Shown here one piece after another: positions 12,893 through 19,648 of a stretch of 64,000 nt of DNA (position 1 is its first letter; each line of letters begins with the position of its first letter). The notes under the pieces are model-generated. The model did not search any database, was not told the origin of the DNA, and saw only the letters and a list, made by a program, of their open reading frames with translations. Location: contig CP046106.1 of assembly GCA_013343275.1 (NCBI GenBank), positions 224,001 through 288,000 of the forward strand. The letters run 5' to 3'. This DNA is from Candidatus Nanohaloarchaea archaeon (lineage in GTDB: Archaea > Nanohalarchaeota > Nanosalinia > Nanosalinales > Nanosalinaceae). A program made the translations under genes and the position numbers.

Positions 12893-15810
12893 GAAAAGCA
12901 GTTCTTGTAGCTTCCCTACTGCTTTCCCTGTTCGTAGCTCCTGCTTCAGGTCAGATGTATATGGAGGACATGTCAGGAACGCAGAGCGACTGGAGTTGCT
13001 ATACTACAGGAAGATCGCTGGATAAATGTACTACAGATGCTACCGGAAGTTACTCCACTCCAGAACAGTCGGCAAAGGCCACGGGGAGATACGAGATCTG
13101 TGGTAAAGGAGGCATAACGAAATCTTTCAATTTCTCTCGGCAGCCAAAGTATCTGAGCTTTGACTACAGAATAAGTCTAGACAGCTGGGGCAAGGGAACT
13201 ATATACATCAACGACTCCTCCGGAGTCACAGAGCTTATTGACAAGAAAAGAACAGGTTCAACCTATGATTCTGGCTGGAGAAGCGAAACATTTGTAGTCA
13301 GCTCACAGGACAAAGACTTCTCTCTCACCGCAGGAAGTATAAGCAGCTCCAGCTTCTGCGACAGCAAGCCGGAAGATAGATCATGGAAAGTATGGGTAGA
13401 CGATATCAAGGTAACATCCAGCGCAGACAAACCAAATGAACCTTCCTTCCGACAGCCAGAGGATGGAGCAACGGCAACACGCACAACAGTAGAACTCTCA
13501 ACAAGGATAACAGATCCTAACGACGACACTATGAACGTAAGTTTCCACAGAGCCGATGGCACACTGATAGAGAACGAAACGGCTCCCAGTGGAGCAACAG
13601 TCTCAGTATACTGGGGAGGTCTAAGTGATGGAGGGAGTTACAGTTGGTACATCAAAGCCTGTGATGGAACCGGCCAGTGCAGAATTACCGATACCTGGAG
13701 TTTTACTGTAGATAAGGCTGCAGAGAAAACATATACTGGAGGAGGCCTGATGGATGAAGACTATACAAAGATCGGTGAGAACAGGAGCGTAGGAAACTAC
13801 TACTTTGAGGGCTATGTTAACAAGCTGGAGGAGGCTACCAACCAGCTGGAGGATGGAATGGATACAAGTTACTACAGTCCAAGCGATTACGGTATCTGGT
13901 CGGACTCCGATGGCTCTCAGGGGAGTGCAGATCAATGGGCCATCACAAAGTACCAGAACTGGTCGATATCGAACAGAGGGATTCCATATCCTCCAGGCCC
14001 AACAGTAATCTCTCCGCAGATAAGACAGGGGGGTCTTTACCATCCAAGCTACAGCAGCGAGGGAGGAACATATTATCACAAGACCTACGGCGGGCCATAT
14101 CGAAGCGTTCCTACTAATCTAGGCGCCTTCACCTCTCCAAGTGTTTCCAAGAAGGACAAGGTAATGGGCAACTCGTTCGCTGCTGTAGCTGCACAGAACT
14201 TTACAGGTGCTTTCGGGCCTGTTCGAGAAGGTGATGGAGTATGGGTAGATCCTGATGATATACGGTCAATGAATGAATTATTGGAGGGGCCTTGGCTACA
14301 GAAACTTGTATACAATACTGACCTTACCGGTCCTGACATGGGTCTCGGCTTCAATCTTGGAGATAACCGAGGAATAAGCTATCGTTCAGGATTTGGCTCT
14401 CCAAGATCCTACGTTATGTACGGTAATGTCTACTTTGAAGGAGAAGCGGATAAAGTTGATAATGACGGAGATGGAGTTGTAGACGAGGAATGGAACAGCA
14501 ATGGAACAGTCGGTGAATCCAAGCCTTATATAGAGGCCCCGATGTGTGGTGATGATCAATACGAATACCTGCTTGAAGAGCTAGGAGAGTCAAAGAGATC
14601 GGTAGCAGGAGATGGAAAGTATGCCTGTACTGATTCACAGAACGTCTGTATAGATATGAGTGCGGAAGGAAGTAAGGTATTCGGCCTAGGAGTTTACCGG
14701 CAGACAGATGAGCCTGATGAAGCCTTCGGGAGATCCAAGCTTGATAAGGAGGCCTGTGCAGTGATAGGCACCGATACAGTTGCTAAGTGGTATGATCAGG
14801 ACTTCAAACAGAGGCTGTGCCGCGACAACACTCTCTACGGTAATAGCGGCGTAAGATGGTTCTCGGAAAGTGAGATCGCACAGCACCCAGCAGCGTTCAA
14901 AGGAGGAATAGACGACGACTTCAACGAATTTATAGAGGAAAACAGGGCGCTGGAAGGAACAACCTCGCAAAACCTCCAGTCAGATCCTACAAGAACCTAC
15001 ACATCTTCCAGCAGCCTGGGCCAGTACAGTCCCGTACCGACAGGTAATGCGGATCAGAGAAACGGTGTCTCAAATACTACAATAGCAACACCTGGCTTCT
15101 GTGGTGGAGATGACTCATCAGAATACCTGGTAACGCAGGAAGGCGTAACGAGTCTCATTCAGACCAACAACTCCATCATAGGAGTTGCTTCACAGCCGGG
15201 CGCATGTATACTTGATGGAGCCAAGTATCCTGAAGTTTCCAGCGACAAAAGGGAGCTTTACAGTCCTGGAGCGCAGATAGAGTTCGATCTCGGAAGCGAT
15301 ACCAAGATGATATCATGTTACGGCGGAGCCTGGTACCAGAAATGGCCTGTAGTATTCAGAAAAGATACTGTAGATGTGCCTCTAGGAACCTCTCGACTAG
15401 CACAGTTCAAGGTAATCAACGTGGAGACAGAGGCAAAAACCTTCAATATCGAGCTTAAGGACGACAGCTCCAGTAACTGGAACAACGCATGGTCATACCT
15501 ATCCCAGGAAGATGCCACAAGATCCGATACAGTAACAGCGACTATAGGCGCTCAGTCATCCAGGACATACACAGTTAAACTCTACGGAGGGAACTCAAAC
15601 GTAGACAACGCACAGATCACGGTAAGAGCTGCCTCAGCAGATGGCACAATATCCGGTGACGACAGCATCCGAATTGATGTAACAAAGGCCCCTAACTCCA
15701 CGCAGACCGGAGCGACTTCCAGCAACGCAGTACCCGGAATAGGCCTACCACAGATAGTAGTGCTGCTTATGCTATCCTCAACAATGTTCCTCTACTGGAA
15801 CAAACCGTAA
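12889..15810 (+). CDS. Large secreted surface protein with Ig/FN3-like domain and C-terminal PGF-CTERM-like anchor
   Basis: Signal peptide; GTGA overlap with upstream gene; CGDD..EYL repeats; C-terminal VPGIG followed by a TM helix. Confidence 0.75.
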   Translation: MRKAVLVASLLLSLFVAPASGQMYMEDMSGTQSDWSCYTTGRSLDKCTTDATGSYSTPEQSAKATGRYEICGKGGITKSFNFSRQPKYLSFDYRISLDSWGKGTIYINDSSGVTELIDKKRTGSTYDSGWRSETFVVSSQDKDFSLTAGSISSSSFCDSKPEDRSWKVWVDDIKVTSSADKPNEPSFRQPEDGATATRTTVELSTRITDPNDDTMNVSFHRADGTLIENETAPSGATVSVYWGGLSDGGSYSWYIKACDGTGQCRITDTWSFTVDKAAEKTYTGGGLMDEDYTKIGENRSVGNYYFEGYVNKLEEATNQLEDGMDTSYYSPSDYGIWSDSDGSQGSADQWAITKYQNWSISNRGIPYPPGPTVISPQIRQGGLYHPSYSSEGGTYYHKTYGGPYRSVPTNLGAFTSPSVSKKDKVMGNSFAAVAAQNFTGAFGPVREGDGVWVDPDDIRSMNELLEGPWLQKLVYNTDLTGPDMGLGFNLGDNRGISYRSGFGSPRSYVMYGNVYFEGEADKVDNDGDGVVDEEWNSNGTVGESKPYIEAPMCGDDQYEYLLEELGESKRSVAGDGKYACTDSQNVCIDMSAEGSKVFGLGVYRQTDEPDEAFGRSKLDKEACAVIGTDTVAKWYDQDFKQRLCRDNTLYGNSGVRWFSESEIAQHPAAFKGGIDDDFNEFIEENRALEGTTSQNLQSDPTRTYTSSSSLGQYSPVPTGNADQRNGVSNTTIATPGFCGGDDSSEYLVTQEGVTSLIQTNNSIIGVASQPGACILDGAKYPEVSSDKRELYSPGAQIEFDLGSDTKMISCYGGAWYQKWPVVFRKDTVDVPLGTSRLAQFKVINVETEAKTFNIELKDDSSSNWNNAWSYLSQEDATRSDTVTATIGAQSSRTYTVKLYGGNSNVDNAQITVRAASADGTISGDDSIRIDVTKAPNSTQTGATSSNAVPGIGLPQIVVLLMLSSTMFLYWNKP

Positions 15811-15842
15811 ACTATTTCAAAATTCTCTTTCTCTTTTACTGT

Positions 15843-15896
15843 ATGAACGGTGGCTACGTTCCGCAGCTTCCTCAACAAAGCTGCATTGCAGGATAA
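15843..15896 (+). CDS. uORF1, putative leader peptide MNGGYVPQLPQQSCIAG
   Basis: Hand translation ATG AAC GGT GGC TAC GTT CCG...GGA TAA; shares GGYVP with uORF2; 2 Pro codons. Confidence 0.6.
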   Translation: MNGGYVPQLPQQSCIAG

Positions 15897-15951
15897 ACAG
15901 TATTCTCAACATTTCCTTAGCCACTGCTCTACCCATTCTAACGTGATTTCT

Positions 15952-16017
15952 ATGACACAATCAACCAAAGGTGGATATGTTCCACACGACTGGTTACGCT
16001 CAGTCGACACGCAATAA
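15952..16017 (+). CDS. uORF2, putative leader peptide MTQSTKGGYVPHDWLRSVDTQ
   Basis: GGT GGA TAT GTT CCA; differs from the uORF1 motif only at three synonymous third positions. Confidence 0.62.
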   Translation: MTQSTKGGYVPHDWLRSVDTQ

Positions 16018-16037
16018 TGCGTTCAGAAGAACGCATT
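16016..16037 (+). promoter_or_regulatory. Perfect 9-bp RNA hairpin covering the uORF2 stop/uORF3 start
   Basis: AATGCGTTC-AGAA-GAACGCATT. Confidence 0.6.
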
Positions 16038-16097
16038 CAAACACAACTCAAAACCTTTCAACAGAAAAATTCTCAGGCCGGTCGCTATGAAACGTAG
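16017..16097 (+). CDS. uORF3 (MRSEERIQTQLKTFQQKNSQAGRYET), overlapping the ProRS2 start out of frame
   Basis: TAATG coupling with uORF2; stop TAG at 16095-16097 lies inside the ProRS2 ORF. Confidence 0.4.
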   Translation: MRSEERIQTQLKTFQQKNSQAGRYET

Positions 16098-17313
16098 CGA
16101 ACTATTTGCCACAACCTCCAAGGAATCGGAGGCTGAGTTCGACTGCCGCAGTGCAGAACTTGCCGTAAAGGCCGGGCTGGTCCACAACTATGGTTCCGGA
16201 ACTTTCGGATTCACACACCTGGGCCGGAAAGTACTGGACAATATAGAAGAAGTAATCAGGGATGAGATGGACGAGATAGGCCAGGAAGTGACGATGAACA
16301 TCCTGCAGAACTCGGAGATGTGGGAGAAGTCCGGGAGGTGGAAGAACTTTGAGGGAGACGAGTTCTTCACACTGAAGAACCGTGACAACAGAGATTTCAC
16401 GATCGCGGCGACGCATGAAGAAGCCTCTGTCGAACTTGTCCGGAAGAAGATTCGATCCTACAGAGACCTGGACTTCATCATCTACCAGATAGGTCGAAAG
16501 TTCAGAGACGACAGAGCCAGGAAAGGCCTTCTGCGTGGGAAAGAGTTCTTCATGAAGGATGCCTACAGCTTCCACGCCGACAGAGAGCAACTTCAGGAAA
16601 CCTACCATGAAATGATTGAGGCCTACACCACGATCTTCGAGAAACTAGGCCTTGAATTTTCCAGAGTCTCCGCTGAAAACGGTTCAATGGGAGGCAGTCA
16701 GAGCCATGAGTTCATGGCTGAATCAGAGATCGGTAGCGACACATACCTCAAATGCGTGGATTCGGAGTGCAGATACGGCGCCAAAGATCTGGGTGAAGAG
16801 AAATGCCGTGAATGTGGCTCTGAACTTCAGGATGTCAGCGGCATCGAGATAGGCCATCTGTTCAAGCTTGGCAAAAGATACAGCTCCAAAATGGATCTGA
16901 CATTTACCGATGAAGATGGAGAGGAGAAAGATGTCATCATGGCCTCCTACGGAATCGGTGTATCAAGGCTGATCGCAGCAATAATCGAGCAGAACAACGA
17001 TGAAAACGGCATCACCTGGAACAGTAAGGTGTCTGCCTTTGACTGCTCGATCATCATTGCAAGACATGAAGATGCGGCAGTTGAAAAGGCGGAAGAGCTG
17101 CACGATAAACTTTCCGAAAGAGGCCTTGAAGTCCTGCTCTTCGATGAAGGATCTGTCGGTGAGAAGTTCGCTGAGTCCGATCTAATGGGGATCAAACGGA
17201 AGGTCATATTGGGGAATAACTACCTGGAGAACGATGTGATTGAGGTAGAGAAGAGGGATGGACGAACCTTCCAGGCCGACTTTGAGGAGATTAAGGAGGT
17301 GGTATCCTCCTGA
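16087..17313 (+). CDS. proS: Bacterial-type prolyl-tRNA synthetase paralog (short form without full INS domain), contains no proline
   Basis: ATHEE, YQIGRKFRD..R.GLLRGKEFFMKDAYSFH (motif 2), GIEIGHLFKLG, MASYGIGVSR (motif 3), anticodon-binding domain. Confidence 0.9.
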   Translation: MKRSELFATTSKESEAEFDCRSAELAVKAGLVHNYGSGTFGFTHLGRKVLDNIEEVIRDEMDEIGQEVTMNILQNSEMWEKSGRWKNFEGDEFFTLKNRDNRDFTIAATHEEASVELVRKKIRSYRDLDFIIYQIGRKFRDDRARKGLLRGKEFFMKDAYSFHADREQLQETYHEMIEAYTTIFEKLGLEFSRVSAENGSMGGSQSHEFMAESEIGSDTYLKCVDSECRYGAKDLGEEKCRECGSELQDVSGIEIGHLFKLGKRYSSKMDLTFTDEDGEEKDVIMASYGIGVSRLIAAIIEQNNDENGITWNSKVSAFDCSIIIARHEDAAVEKAEELHDKLSERGLEVLLFDEGSVGEKFAESDLMGIKRKVILGNNYLENDVIEVEKRDGRTFQADFEEIKEVVSS

Positions 17314-17316
17314 AAT

Positions 17317-18051
17317 TTATTCAATTTCTATATGCCTGGTATGGTTACATTCCTCGCATTGGACCTCTATTTTACCGTACCTAGTTTTAGATCCGATCGT
17401 GGTCAGACCTGAGTATTTGAACTTGCTGTTGTGCCTGTCGTTTTTGAAGTACCACTCGTTTCCACAGGCCGGGCAGTTCATCTCGACTTCTGTCGCCCTT
17501 CTCTCCGTTCTTTCCTTGTGCCTTTTCTTTTCCTCTTTTTTCTTCTCCTTTCTTTTCTTTTCCTTGAACTCTTCGGTTTTGTTTATGGATTCGCCTTTAC
17601 TGAAGCTGGAGGGATACTTTTTCTGGGCTTTTTTACTGTGTTTTCTCCCGTTTCCATAGACTAGGAAACCTAAGAGTCCACTTGCTCCTGCTATAGGTAT
17701 CCAGAGTATCCACATCAGGATAGGGTGAAGGCCGCTTAACGCGAATCCTGAAAGTACAGGTCCTCCGATACCGATTCCGGCTGCCTGTTTCTTTCTTTTC
17801 TCGCCGTGTTCTCTTTTCTCCTTTCCAGGATCCGAACCGCATTCAGGACATTCATTCAGGTCTGCATCAATAATTTCGCCACATTCCTCACATGCTGCTT
17901 TCCTTACTGTCCCGCATGAACTGCATTTTCTATCTCCATCATCGAACCGTTCGCTGCATTCCGGGCAGAAAAGCCGTTTCTGACCGCAGAAAGAACAGAA
18001 CCATTCATCGTCTCCTATCTCTTCATCGCAGTTACTTGATCCATAACACAT
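17317..18051 (-). CDS. Zinc-ribbon (double zinc ribbon-like) membrane protein
   Basis: Multiple CxxC pairs at the N-terminus, two TM helices, Lys/Glu-rich coil, C-terminal CPAC...CEEC. Confidence 0.7.
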   Translation of the reverse strand: MCYGSSNCDEEIGDDEWFCSFCGQKRLFCPECSERFDDGDRKCSSCGTVRKAACEECGEIIDADLNECPECGSDPGKEKREHGEKRKKQAAGIGIGGPVLSGFALSGLHPILMWILWIPIAGASGLLGFLVYGNGRKHSKKAQKKYPSSFSKGESINKTEEFKEKKRKEKKKEEKKRHKERTERRATEVEMNCPACGNEWYFKNDRHNSKFKYSGLTTIGSKTRYGKIEVQCEECNHTRHIEIE

Positions 18052-18169
18052 ATTCAGGTTAATTTTTCCTCAGCCTTATGTAGTTTTTTCAATCTAGCTG
18101 GATTTTTCAGGGAAAAAGTAACTTCCAGGCAGGCAAGAAAATTAAGAATTACTCCTCAGAACTTATTGT

Positions 18170-19648
18170 ATGAGCCAGGAACTCGGTATCACGGTAAAGA
18201 AAGATCAGAACCCTTCAGAATGGTATACGCAGGTAGTCCAGAAAGCAGAGCTAGCGGATTACGCACCTGTCAAGGGCTGCATGATAATCAAGCCGTACGG
18301 CAACAAGCTATGGGAATCAATCAAGGAAGACTTCAACTCCAAGATCACAGATACCGGGGTAGAAAACGCATACTTCCCACTATTCATACCGGAGAGCTAC
18401 CTGGAAAAAGAAGAAGATATTGTAGAAGGGTTTGATCCTGAAGTCGCATGGGTAACACATGGAGGCGACAAAGAACTGGAGGAAAGACTTGCAGTAAGGC
18501 CTACATCTGAAAGCATAATCGCACCATACATGGCTGACGAAGTAAGAAGCCACAGAGACCTGCCTCTAAGACTCAATCAGTGGGCCAACGTTGTACGCTG
18601 GGAAGCCACAGACACAAGGCCTTTCCTGAGGACCAGAGAGTTCCTCTGGCAGGAAGGACACACAGCACATGCAACAGAGGAAAGTGCTGACGAAGAGACT
18701 ATGTTGAGGCTGGAGCAGTATCAGGAAGTAATCGAAGATCACCTTGCCATTCCTTCGATCCTGGGTTACAAGCCGGAGCATGATAAGTTCCCGGGCGCCA
18801 AATACACTACAACAATCGAAACCTTGATGCCGGATGGAAAAAGTATTCAGTCGGGAACATCTCACCAGCTGGGCCAGCACTTTGCCGAGGCCTTCGAGAT
18901 AGAGTTCGAGGATGAGGACTCGGATACTCAGACTGCGTGGACGACGTCCTGGGGCCTCTCAACAAGGACGATCGGTGCTTTGATCATGGCACACGGTGAC
19001 GATGATGGCCTTAGATTGCCTCCTCGTGTTGCACCGACACAAGTGGTCGTCGTACCTATCTATCAGGAGGACAATCAGGAAGAAGTAGTTGAATACGCAG
19101 AAAAAGTGACGGAAGAGCTCGAAGCTGAAGGCCTGAGAGTAGACCTCGATGACAGAGATCACAGAACTCCTGGCTACAAGTTCAACGAATGGGAGTTGAA
19201 AGGAGTACCTCTCAGAGTAGAGATAGGGCCTAACGAAGTAGAAGACGATGCAGTTACACCTGTTAGAAGAGACAGCGGCGAGAAAAACATGGGCCAGGAC
19301 AGAGAAGAGTTCGTGGAGGAAGCCGAAGAAGTACTGGAAAACATCCAGGAATCACTTTACAACGAGTTAGAAGAGTATCTGCATGAAAATATCAGAGAGG
19401 CCGACTCGAAGAACGAGATTCTGGCGACAATAGGCAAGAACCGTGGATACGTCAAGGCCCGATGGTGCGGAAAAGAGGAATGCGAGGCCGAAGTGAAGGA
19501 CGAAGTCTCTGCCGAGATCGTAGTGCTACCGTTCCGAGAGGACTCCAAGCCTGCTACTATCCAGGCCTCCGAAGAACACATCGACGGAGAATGCGCAGTC
19601 TGCGGTGAAGAAGCCGAGAGATGGGCCTACTTTGCGAAAAATTACTGA
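18170..19648 (+). CDS. proS: Prolyl-tRNA synthetase, archaeal/eukaryotic type (housekeeping)
   Basis: AVRPTSE, NQWANVVRWE, PFLRTREFLWQEGHT, TSWGLSTR, C-terminal Zn domain ending FAKNY. Confidence 0.97.
   Translation: MSQELGITVKKDQNPSEWYTQVVQKAELADYAPVKGCMIIKPYGNKLWESIKEDFNSKITDTGVENAYFPLFIPESYLEKEEDIVEGFDPEVAWVTHGGDKELEERLAVRPTSESIIAPYMADEVRSHRDLPLRLNQWANVVRWEATDTRPFLRTREFLWQEGHTAHATEESADEETMLRLEQYQEVIEDHLAIPSILGYKPEHDKFPGAKYTTTIETLMPDGKSIQSGTSHQLGQHFAEAFEIEFEDEDSDTQTAWTTSWGLSTRTIGALIMAHGDDDGLRLPPRVAPTQVVVVPIYQEDNQEEVVEYAEKVTEELEAEGLRVDLDDRDHRTPGYKFNEWELKGVPLRVEIGPNEVEDDAVTPVRRDSGEKNMGQDREEFVEEAEEVLENIQESLYNELEEYLHENIREADSKNEILATIGKNRGYVKARWCGKEECEAEVKDEVSAEIVVLPFREDSKPATIQASEEHIDGECAVCGEEAERWAYFAKNY

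Follow-up and report, generated by a model that had tools for sequence, protein, structure and literature searches.

Leader-peptide attenuators consist of short upstream open reading frames (uORFs) that hold codons for a given amino acid, overlap RNA helices and precede genes for the same amino acid. The pheST leader is said to be an attenuator of this kind that reads charged tRNA, and leaderless polycysteine uORFs have reportedly been found in mycobacteria. For the proteins themselves, the cognate-bias hypothesis states that enzymes needed for recovery from starvation for an amino acid should be selected to hold little of that amino acid (passages of PMC4209129). Here we describe a locus to which both ideas may apply. 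It lies in a 64,000-nucleotide stretch of DNA, hereafter the window, from a Candidatus Nanohaloarchaea archaeon (assembly GCA_013343275.1, contig CP046106.1, positions 224,001 to 288,000 of the forward strand), where a gene for a second prolyl-tRNA synthetase (ProRS), which we call ProRS2, is free of proline and follows a conserved leader with two uORFs. We consider it probable that this leader senses Pro-tRNAPro and controls ProRS2 as a rescue synthetase, whose own translation would need no Pro-tRNAPro.

Both the synthetase and its leader have described counterparts. P-type ProRS of alphaproteobacteria with a reduced or missing INS editing domain (structure 2i4l) resemble ProRS2 in having a class II core and an HGTP domain within about 400-440 aa. 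However, the INS-less enzymes of the alphaproteobacterial type are the sole housekeeping ProRS and have a normal proline content, whereas ProRS2 is accessory, archaeal and without proline, in a cell whose tRNAPro has C72. In Bacillus thuringiensis, BtProRS1 (P-type) and BtProRS2 (E-type) occur in one cell and are both constitutive under the tested conditions, according to passages of PMC11229370. As at our locus, a second ProRS of foreign type stands there beside the native one; it is adapted to the host tRNAPro and has been proposed to help under stress or against inhibitors. That pair is nevertheless a mirror image, with an E-type enzyme in a bacterium instead of a bacterial-type enzyme in an archaeon, and neither proline depletion nor a proline-codon leader was found in the abstract and the searched passages of the report. 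Cognate bias was framed and tested for biosynthetic pathways in PMC4209129, the main text of which has the word "synthetase" once, for tryptophan synthetase, whereas the present case concerns an aminoacyl-tRNA synthetase and complete elimination. The mgtP gene of Salmonella has a proline-codon leader that, according to the abstract of PMC3641672, raises transcription when Pro-tRNAPro is predicted to fall.

The leader of ProRS2 is like the attenuators in its uORFs with cognate codons, here two in tandem, the first apparently leaderless. It differs from them in being archaeal, in having a single conserved Pro codon within a conserved peptide, and in that no terminator/antiterminator pair was identified. 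With T-box riboswitches it has in common a structured leader ahead of an aminoacyl-tRNA synthetase gene that would respond to tRNA charging; unlike them it has no match in Rfam, and its conserved elements are coding mini-ORFs. A full-text search, with subscription journals and supplements outside its reach, found no literature on proline-free ProRS, on synthetases that lack their cognate residue or on archaeal attenuation by leader peptides. What appears to be new here is cognate bias taken to zero in a synthetase, together with a probable charged-tRNA-sensing leader peptide in Archaea.

A prolyl-tRNA synthetase paralog without proline

The window holds two ProRS genes:

16087-17313, forward strand: ProRS2, a paralog of 408 aa that belongs to the bacterial type of prolyl-tRNA synthetase, lacks INS and has 0 Pro.
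18170-19648, forward strand: ProRS1, the core archaeal-type ProRS of 492 aa with 24 Pro, scoring 577.7 against TIGR00408 (cut-off 437); its start lies 856 bp downstream of ProRS2.

The original prediction, made by a model from the sequence alone, took ProRS2 for a prolyl-tRNA synthetase with intact catalytic motifs, and both parts hold. Pfam assigns a class II core of the Gly/His/Pro/Ser/Thr group (PF00587 tRNA-synt_2b, E 3.6e-36) to residues 94-303 and an HGTP_anticodon domain (PF03129, E 1.1e-10) to residues 322-406. The NCBIfam model of bacterial-type ProRS, TIGR00409, is matched with 404.5 bits, above its cut-off of 306.7, and the catalytic class II motifs align with those of the solved ProRS 2j3l and 5znj; matches to solved structures reach E 2e-87 (2j3l) and 1.5e-66 (2i4l). 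Pfam finds no INS (YbaK-like, PF04073) editing domain between motifs 2 and 3 of ProRS2, and in the alignment its residues 233-248 span chain residues 232-401 of 2j3l. The missing domain explains why the TIGR00409 match is split in two stretches and why the score against the full-length model PRK09194 (445.6) is below the cut-off of 558. The INS site is occupied by a cluster of four cysteines (C223, C228, C240 and C243, within residues 223-243; window 16753-16815, forward strand), three of which are nearly invariant in INS-less relatives, and this segment is probably a small zinc-binding knuckle in place of the editing domain.

Comparison with 78 relatives of normal proline content separates proline from all other residues. 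Among the 54 columns that are at least 90% conserved, ProRS2 keeps 47 of the 48 non-Pro columns, the sole change being L to I, and none of the six Pro columns. With its motifs and its anticodon-binding domain retained, ProRS2 would still be active as a synthetase. Thirteen columns that are mostly Pro in relatives are all non-Pro here (T9, H44, N71, N75, A108, D129, E212, R241, K268, N312, A317, I324 and K370), so the individual replacements listed in the original prediction are confirmed on alignments.

The absence of proline is complete at the codon level. As had been read from the translation, the ORF at 16087-17313 has no CCN among its 409 in-frame codons; the two other frames have 30 and 22. 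The GC content of the gene is 0.50, so that base composition is not the cause. The original prediction put the chance of such an absence at about 1e-9 by using the proline frequency of the neighbour (24/492). Crude ORF calling on the genome, a single contig of 915,886 bp that is 96% complete, gave 932 ORFs with a minimum length of 100 aa and a proline frequency of 3.48%, at which the probability of zero prolines in 408 residues is 5.2e-7. ProRS2 is the longest proline-free ORF of the genome (the runner-up has 208 aa). When all 20 residues are considered, its lack of proline ranks second among the cases in which one of the 932 ORFs is wholly devoid of a residue. The only more extreme one is a lysine-free ORF of 276 aa outside the window (G000:C1:834436-835269, reverse strand; locus L252), with a probability of about 8e-8 at 5.7% Lys and no Pfam family.

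Comparison across the clade is a stronger test of the absence than any probability for a single sequence. A search of 5.8 billion protein clusters gave 64 full- or near-full-length relatives, which are Nanohaloarchaea wherever they are named (58-84% identity); 59 of the 64 have no proline and the other five have one or two. One homolog, P0030, carries the source name Candidatus Nanohalobium constans. The homologs listed at 42-53% identity, haloarchaea where named, are INS-less and contain 10-21 Pro. Sequences shorter than 370 aa were excluded from trees and column counts. The 64 nanohaloarchaeal sequences form one clade with a support of 100 (FastTree, 259 rows) and 97 (IQ-TREE, 71 rows, site-heterogeneous model), and the haloarchaeal proteins are its sister group. 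Over 13.2 substitutions per site the nanohaloarchaeal clade has no fixed and two variable Pro columns, whereas the sister group has seven fixed and 34 variable ones over 11.8. Since the tree lengths are similar, so few Pro columns imply that new prolines are continually removed in the nanohaloarchaeal clade. In the terms of the cognate-bias hypothesis, ProRS2 has 0% Pro against 3.48% in the proteome, and this holds clade-wide.

Proline-free forms occur outside this clade as well. An exhaustive profile search of 1.84 billion representatives added 147 rows with a median of 3.7% Pro, among them four INS-less ProRS without any proline (P0125, P0149, P0173 and P0214). Around P0173 there is a bacterial clade with 80 INS-less rows, of which 40 lack proline altogether and 40 contain 1-11 Pro; one of its proline-free members, P0307, bears the source name Gemmatimonadaceae bacterium, and the full-length, INS-containing sister proteins of the clade have 18-38 Pro. 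The remaining three (P0125, P0149 and P0214) sit elsewhere in the tree, apart from the P0173 clade. To force the 25 rows with at most one Pro into a single clade costs 313 log-likelihood units (p-AU 1.9e-42 in the approximately unbiased test), for a group that was chosen after the first tree was seen. On these trees proline-free INS-less ProRS arose independently in bacteria, and a single origin is rejected. With two or more origins, among DPANN archaea and among bacteria, the trait is likely to be adaptive.

Loss of the editing domain alone does not drive the loss of proline, since ordinary INS-less ProRS have a normal content: among the matches listed for P0307, which are ordinary INS-less ProRS at 35-48% identity, at least 12 Pro are found in 80/80 loci of named genomes, mostly alphaproteobacteria, and 19 INS-less metagenomic loci have 10-17. 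Several expectations that accompanied the original prediction can be judged from these counts. Mapped on the tree of ProRS relatives, proline content is zero or near zero throughout the nanohaloarchaeal clade and 10-21 residues in its sister group. The 80 listed loci also speak against the suspicion that proline-free ProRS might be common regardless of context. Selection against the cognate residue, which the prediction had proposed, is supported by the clade-wide absence, by the contrast of 47/48 with 0/6 conserved columns, and by the repeated origin.

The two-uORF leader and the proline genes it precedes

A conserved leader of about 245 nt lies upstream of ProRS2 within a 276-bp spacer. Among 16 distinct genomic and metagenomic loci, 15 have the spacer conserved; in the 16th, that of genome G067, the leader elements are found further upstream, beyond an inserted small ORF. 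Its features in the window are:

15813-15822, forward strand: block A, a TATA-like, A/T-rich block 21-30 nt before the uORF1 ATG, conserved in position in aligned leaders.
15843-15896, forward strand: uORF1, 17 codons, MNGGYVPQLPQQSCIAG followed by a stop, with G-G-Y-V-P and the conserved Pro codon CCG.
15846-15856, forward strand: 5' strand of helix P1, at uORF1 codons 2-5, pairing with 15918-15928.
15918-15928, forward strand: 3' strand of helix P1 (block C), about 70 nt downstream of the 5' strand.
15943-15954, forward strand: block D, a Shine-Dalgarno-like GTGAT, a 4-nt spacer and the uORF2 ATG.
15952-16017, forward strand: uORF2, 21 codons, MTQSTKGGYVPHDWLRSVDTQ followed by a stop, with the motif G-G-Y-V-P.
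16048-16062, forward strand: block F, TCAAAACCTTTCAAC, conserved, between uORF2 and the ProRS2 ribosome-binding site.

The conserved blocks can be read as short coding sequences, and both uORFs are presumably translated. uORF1 (M-x-G-[DGE]-x-[VI]-P) is found in 15/15 leaders with enough upstream sequence; the G067 locus was omitted from this count because the 330-nt upstream segment used was too short there, and a uORF1-type motif is seen further upstream. uORF2 (...[ST]-x-x-G-G-[YRC]-[VI]-P) is found in 16/16, and its distance from ATG to Pro is 10, 11 or 13 codons, so that the indels are multiples of three. The two share G-[GDE]-x-[VI]-P, with bases 1 and 2 of the Pro codon invariant and base 3 variable (A or G in uORF2), and each has one conserved Pro codon (some have two Pro codons). 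The core nucleotide motif of the leader occurs twice in the whole genome, both times in the ProRS2 leader, and a peptide-level screen of intergenic ORFs of up to 35 codons found exactly two with the motif peptide, namely uORF1 and uORF2. Block A would be the promoter of a leaderless uORF1, with the spacing of leaderless mRNAs. In block D, GTGATTTCTATG is found once in the genome and is complementary to the 3' end of 16S rRNA (...GGATCACCTCC); the block is conserved among leaders, with GAGGT instead in one of them. The conserved peptide around the uORF Pro codon suggests, speculatively, that the nascent chain contributes in the manner of arrest peptides.

Helix P1 consists of 11 pairs, five of them with changes on both sides. 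Its cells are paired in 92% of cases compared with 26-55% when the partner is slid, and its covariation score was reached by 0/500 shuffles. A local hairpin is also possible at 15970-15985 in uORF2 (99% paired, one-sided changes only), variable hairpins occur where uORF2 ends, and the ProRS2 ribosome-binding site is preceded by a T-rich tract. Block F is conserved in the ProRS2 leaders and likewise in the leaders of ProRS1 and of a fused proline-biosynthesis gene, ProC-ProB, in family f1; it was rejected as a general promoter motif because the whole window contains just one match to its core, CAAAAYCTTY. A third proline-free mini-ORF of 26 codons (window 16017-16099, forward strand) spans block F: its ATG overlaps the uORF2 stop (TAATG), its TAG end overlaps the first ProRS2 codons, and none of the other leaders read has an equivalent. 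Rfam gave no match in window 15600-16300 to any of 4227 families, T-box included, at E values up to 10. The variable base in GTTCCNC had at first suggested a T-box-like specifier, an idea that was abandoned when the blocks were read as uORFs.

The leader peptide is not confined to ProRS2. Two nucleotide patterns modelled on the uORFs gave 39 and 32 matches in 70 phylum genomes, compared with 4 and 8 for reversed controls. Outside the ProRS2 leaders, matches that are small uORFs lie upstream of ProRS1, at 112 nt in G039 and at 70 nt in G056. A peptide screen of 43 ProRS1 upstream regions, with G056 added from the nucleotide-pattern evidence, gave seven with a leader peptide (G039, G056, G057, G003, G004, G005 and G009), and none among the eight regions from genomes that carry ProRS2. 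In three genomes of family f5, namely G014, G016 (G016:C3) and G017 (G017:C36), ProRS1 has a uORF of the leader type on its own strand, 1.2-1.5 kb upstream. In G014 (L187:2331-3098, reverse strand) the two are separated by a NIF3/DUF34 gene of 256 aa with 2 Pro, which suggests a leader-NIF3-ProRS1 operon. The leader of G038 and that of G052 stand before a fused pyrroline-5-carboxylate (P5C) reductase and glutamate-5-kinase gene (ProC-ProB), and the G052 version is the full two-uORF form with P1, block D and block F. These fusions are the only two P5C reductase genes found in the 70 genomes, both bear the leader (2/2), and both are proline-poor (7/501 and 6/517). Our main argument for a sensor rests on this distribution: a leader peptide common to ProRS2, ProRS1 and ProC-ProB, all of which serve the supply of Pro-tRNAPro, makes the uORF Pro codon the likely sensing element.

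In the genome of the window, 96% complete on its one contig, neither a P5C reductase nor an ornithine cyclodeaminase was found, so the organism very probably depends on imported proline. A conserved acidic ORF of about 100 aa follows a GGxVP leader in G067 (L022:6546-6854, reverse strand), G048 (L206:349-642, reverse strand) and G062 (contig 2, L209), with 0, 0 and 1 Pro, respectively. In G067 and G048 it sits between leader and ProRS2, and its end runs into the beginning of ProRS2. Over 106 aa the copy in G067 shares 30% identity with that in G062 (E 5e-10). Pfam assigns the G067 copy to no family, and the ORF may be a further member of a proline regulon.

Distribution, locus history and tRNAPro

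ProRS1 is present in 59 of the 70 phylum genomes and in 27 of the 28 high-quality ones, compared with 13/70 and 6/28 for ProRS2, which is confined to one family. Ten of the 13 genomes with ProRS2 also have ProRS1, and the other three are 75-82% complete. ProRS2 is an accessory paralog, a spare beside ProRS1 and not its replacement. It lies directly upstream of ProRS1 in the genome of the window (G000), in G046 and in G044, and elsewhere in G047 and G067. G053, a complete genome of the same genus, lacks it: the gap between the upstream surface-protein gene and ProRS1 is about 93 bp there and 2.38 kb in our genome, where it is occupied by ProRS2 and a zinc-ribbon gene. Relative to G053 (L018), these two genes form an indel of 2.4 kb at window 15777-18156. 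G053 in turn carries about 1.9 kb (two ORFs) after ProRS1 that the genome of the window lacks. The remaining feature of the indel is:

17317-18051, reverse strand: double-zinc-ribbon membrane protein gene (Pfam DZR).

This gene is not beside ProRS2 in G046, G044, G047 or G067 and is therefore probably unrelated to it.

Several copies of ProRS2 are decayed. Partial copies occur at G055:C7:587657-588013 and G061:C3:571931-572458, and the main copy of G061 is split in two frames. In G048 (L206:107-352, reverse strand) an 81-aa ORF like the C-terminal, anticodon-binding part of ProRS2 stands behind a complete leader and a small proline-free ORF; it looks like a deletion remnant of ProRS2. The patchy distribution, together with the fragments and the truncated copy, gives the appearance of a gene that is useful under some conditions and has been lost repeatedly. 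Viral contigs held no relative of the window protein when it was used as query, and one match, of 44% identity, when P0307 was. A mobile or viral origin was rejected, given that the window protein has no viral-contig relative and that the plasmid collection gave only ordinary bacterial proS.

The native tRNAPro genes have C72/A73, whereas bacterial-type ProRS normally reads G72/A73 (passages of PMC11229370). ProRS2 would therefore have had to adapt, as BtProRS2 did in the opposite direction. Two of the tRNA genes are unusual in the ARAGORN predictions: tRNA-Pro(GGG), outside the window at G000:C1:600554-600626 (forward strand), has a predicted anticodon loop CCGGGGC with C and not the usual U before the anticodon, and the third tRNA-Pro (CGG) is predicted solely with a 26-nt intron at an unusual position.

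A proposed rescue synthetase and its alternatives

We hypothesize that scarcity of Pro-tRNAPro, caused by a failing proline supply or by a disabled ProRS1, would be the trigger of the leader. Messages with Pro codons would then stall, and so would ribosomes on uORF1 and uORF2, at the single conserved Pro codon. Such a stall may change the fold of the leader, where uORF1 and helix P1 overlap, and raise downstream expression; that stalling induces rather than represses is drawn by analogy. Lacking Pro codons, the ProRS2 message could be translated to full length under these conditions, and fresh ProRS2 would recharge tRNAPro and allow translation to restart.

This interpretation should be treated with some caution, since several observations weigh against it. 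No terminator/antiterminator pair was identified for the leader. When a stall was simulated in 15 leaders by keeping 27 nt free of base pairs, either about the Pro codon of each uORF or about the stop of uORF2, folding gave no consistent change in the accessibility of the ProRS2 ribosome-binding site, and the simulated uORF1 stall lowered it in 4/15. Charging of the native C72/A73 tRNAPro by ProRS2 is likewise uncertain. Furthermore, a second synthetase makes no proline, and would help only if it had better kinetics at low proline or if ProRS1 failed. Finally, most relatives lack ProRS2, among them the congener with a complete genome, and fragments of it occur in G048, G055 and G061; given this absence and decay, its benefit must be conditional.

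The difficulty that no proline is gained from a further synthetase would be answered if the trigger were a different one, namely poisoning of ProRS1 by a natural inhibitor or proline analogue from competitors or hosts. ProRS2 would then be a resistant bypass whose synthesis is still independent of Pro-tRNAPro. ProRS2 is indeed of another structural type than ProRS1, a foreign-type second synthetase has been discussed as a shield against natural ProRS inhibitors (passages of PMC11229370), and proline-free copies are found in free-living bacteria, to which starvation of a symbiont does not apply. However, no inhibitor is known for the habitat, and in relatives the same leader stands before ProC-ProB, which offers no bypass of an inhibited synthetase and fits a shortage of proline itself, so that we regard this trigger as unlikely, though worth keeping in mind. 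Less likely again is a role outside translation, in which ProRS2 would act in regulation, sense proline or tRNAPro, or make another prolyl product, and its lack of proline would have nothing to do with its own synthesis. Several members carry the NCBI label "aminoacyl--tRNA ligase-related protein", the PRK09194 score of 445.6 is under the cut-off of 558, and most relatives dispense with the gene; but the low score is explained by the loss of INS while TIGR00409 is passed, 47/48 conserved residues and the anticodon-binding domain are retained, and the repeated, ProRS-specific rise of proline-free forms would be left unexplained. It is more improbable still that ProRS2, lacking the INS editing domain, mischarges tRNAPro and avoids Pro codons to keep its own sequence free of errors, because ordinary INS-less ProRS have at least 12 Pro in 80/80 listed loci and the INS-less haloarchaeal relatives 10-21. 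Chance or compositional drift can be set aside almost entirely: a single 408-aa sequence at 3.5% Pro would lack proline with a probability of 5e-7, and hundreds of ORFs were inspected, but conservation over 64 sequences, convergence, and a loss that among the conserved columns selectively affects those with Pro refute it.

A further alternative concerns the leader only, whose repeated GGTGR-N4-GTTCC blocks could be operator sites for a DNA- or RNA-binding protein instead of translated mini-ORFs. The nucleotide motif is highly conserved, including the third positions of GGT, the three-base periodicity of its variation is mild (0.44/0.66/0.79 and 0.45/0.60/0.69 bits), and its second copy is near-palindromic. 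Yet ATG and in-frame stop are kept in 16/16 and 15/15 leaders, indels between ATG and motif come in multiples of three, and ahead of each uORF there is a Shine-Dalgarno-like site or else, at leaderless distance, a TATA-like box. Moreover, G, V/I and P are constant whereas the middle codon is free to vary, the Pro codon differs among leaders in its third base, and the first copy is no palindrome but pairs with a distant block, with covariation. Operator sites are thus a possibility to which we give little credence, about as little as to poisoning of ProRS1. A leader that senses Pro-tRNAPro ahead of a rescue synthetase remains our preferred explanation.

The significance of such an arrangement follows from the circular position of aminoacyl-tRNA synthetases, which are made by the very process they feed: once one charged tRNA is exhausted, the cell is unable to produce more of the enzyme that would remedy the shortage. 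A synthetase without its own amino acid breaks this circle, and it extends cognate bias from biosynthesis to the translation apparatus in the most extreme form. Cognate-free sequence would also be a simple signature by which "rescue" paralogs of other synthetases can be found, and a naturally proline-free, apparently functional enzyme of 400 residues would be useful for work on protein folding and for reduced-alphabet engineering. The Pro-codon leader peptides offer a testable case of ribosome-mediated amino-acid sensing in Archaea.

In conclusion, the leader peptides appear to mark out a small proline regulon in organisms whose amino acids come from a host. The wider proposal, in which we see an even balance of promise and doubt, is that ribosome stalling on leader peptides runs this nanohaloarchaeal regulon, as the first described case of charged-tRNA sensing by a leader peptide in archaea, and that its most elaborate output is a synthetase purged of its cognate residue that could restart from zero Pro-tRNAPro; the bacterial convergence would then suggest a general rule for emergency translation components. 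If this is true, such components would be selected to be free of the substrate they restore, and they could be searched for in every aminoacyl-tRNA synthetase family.

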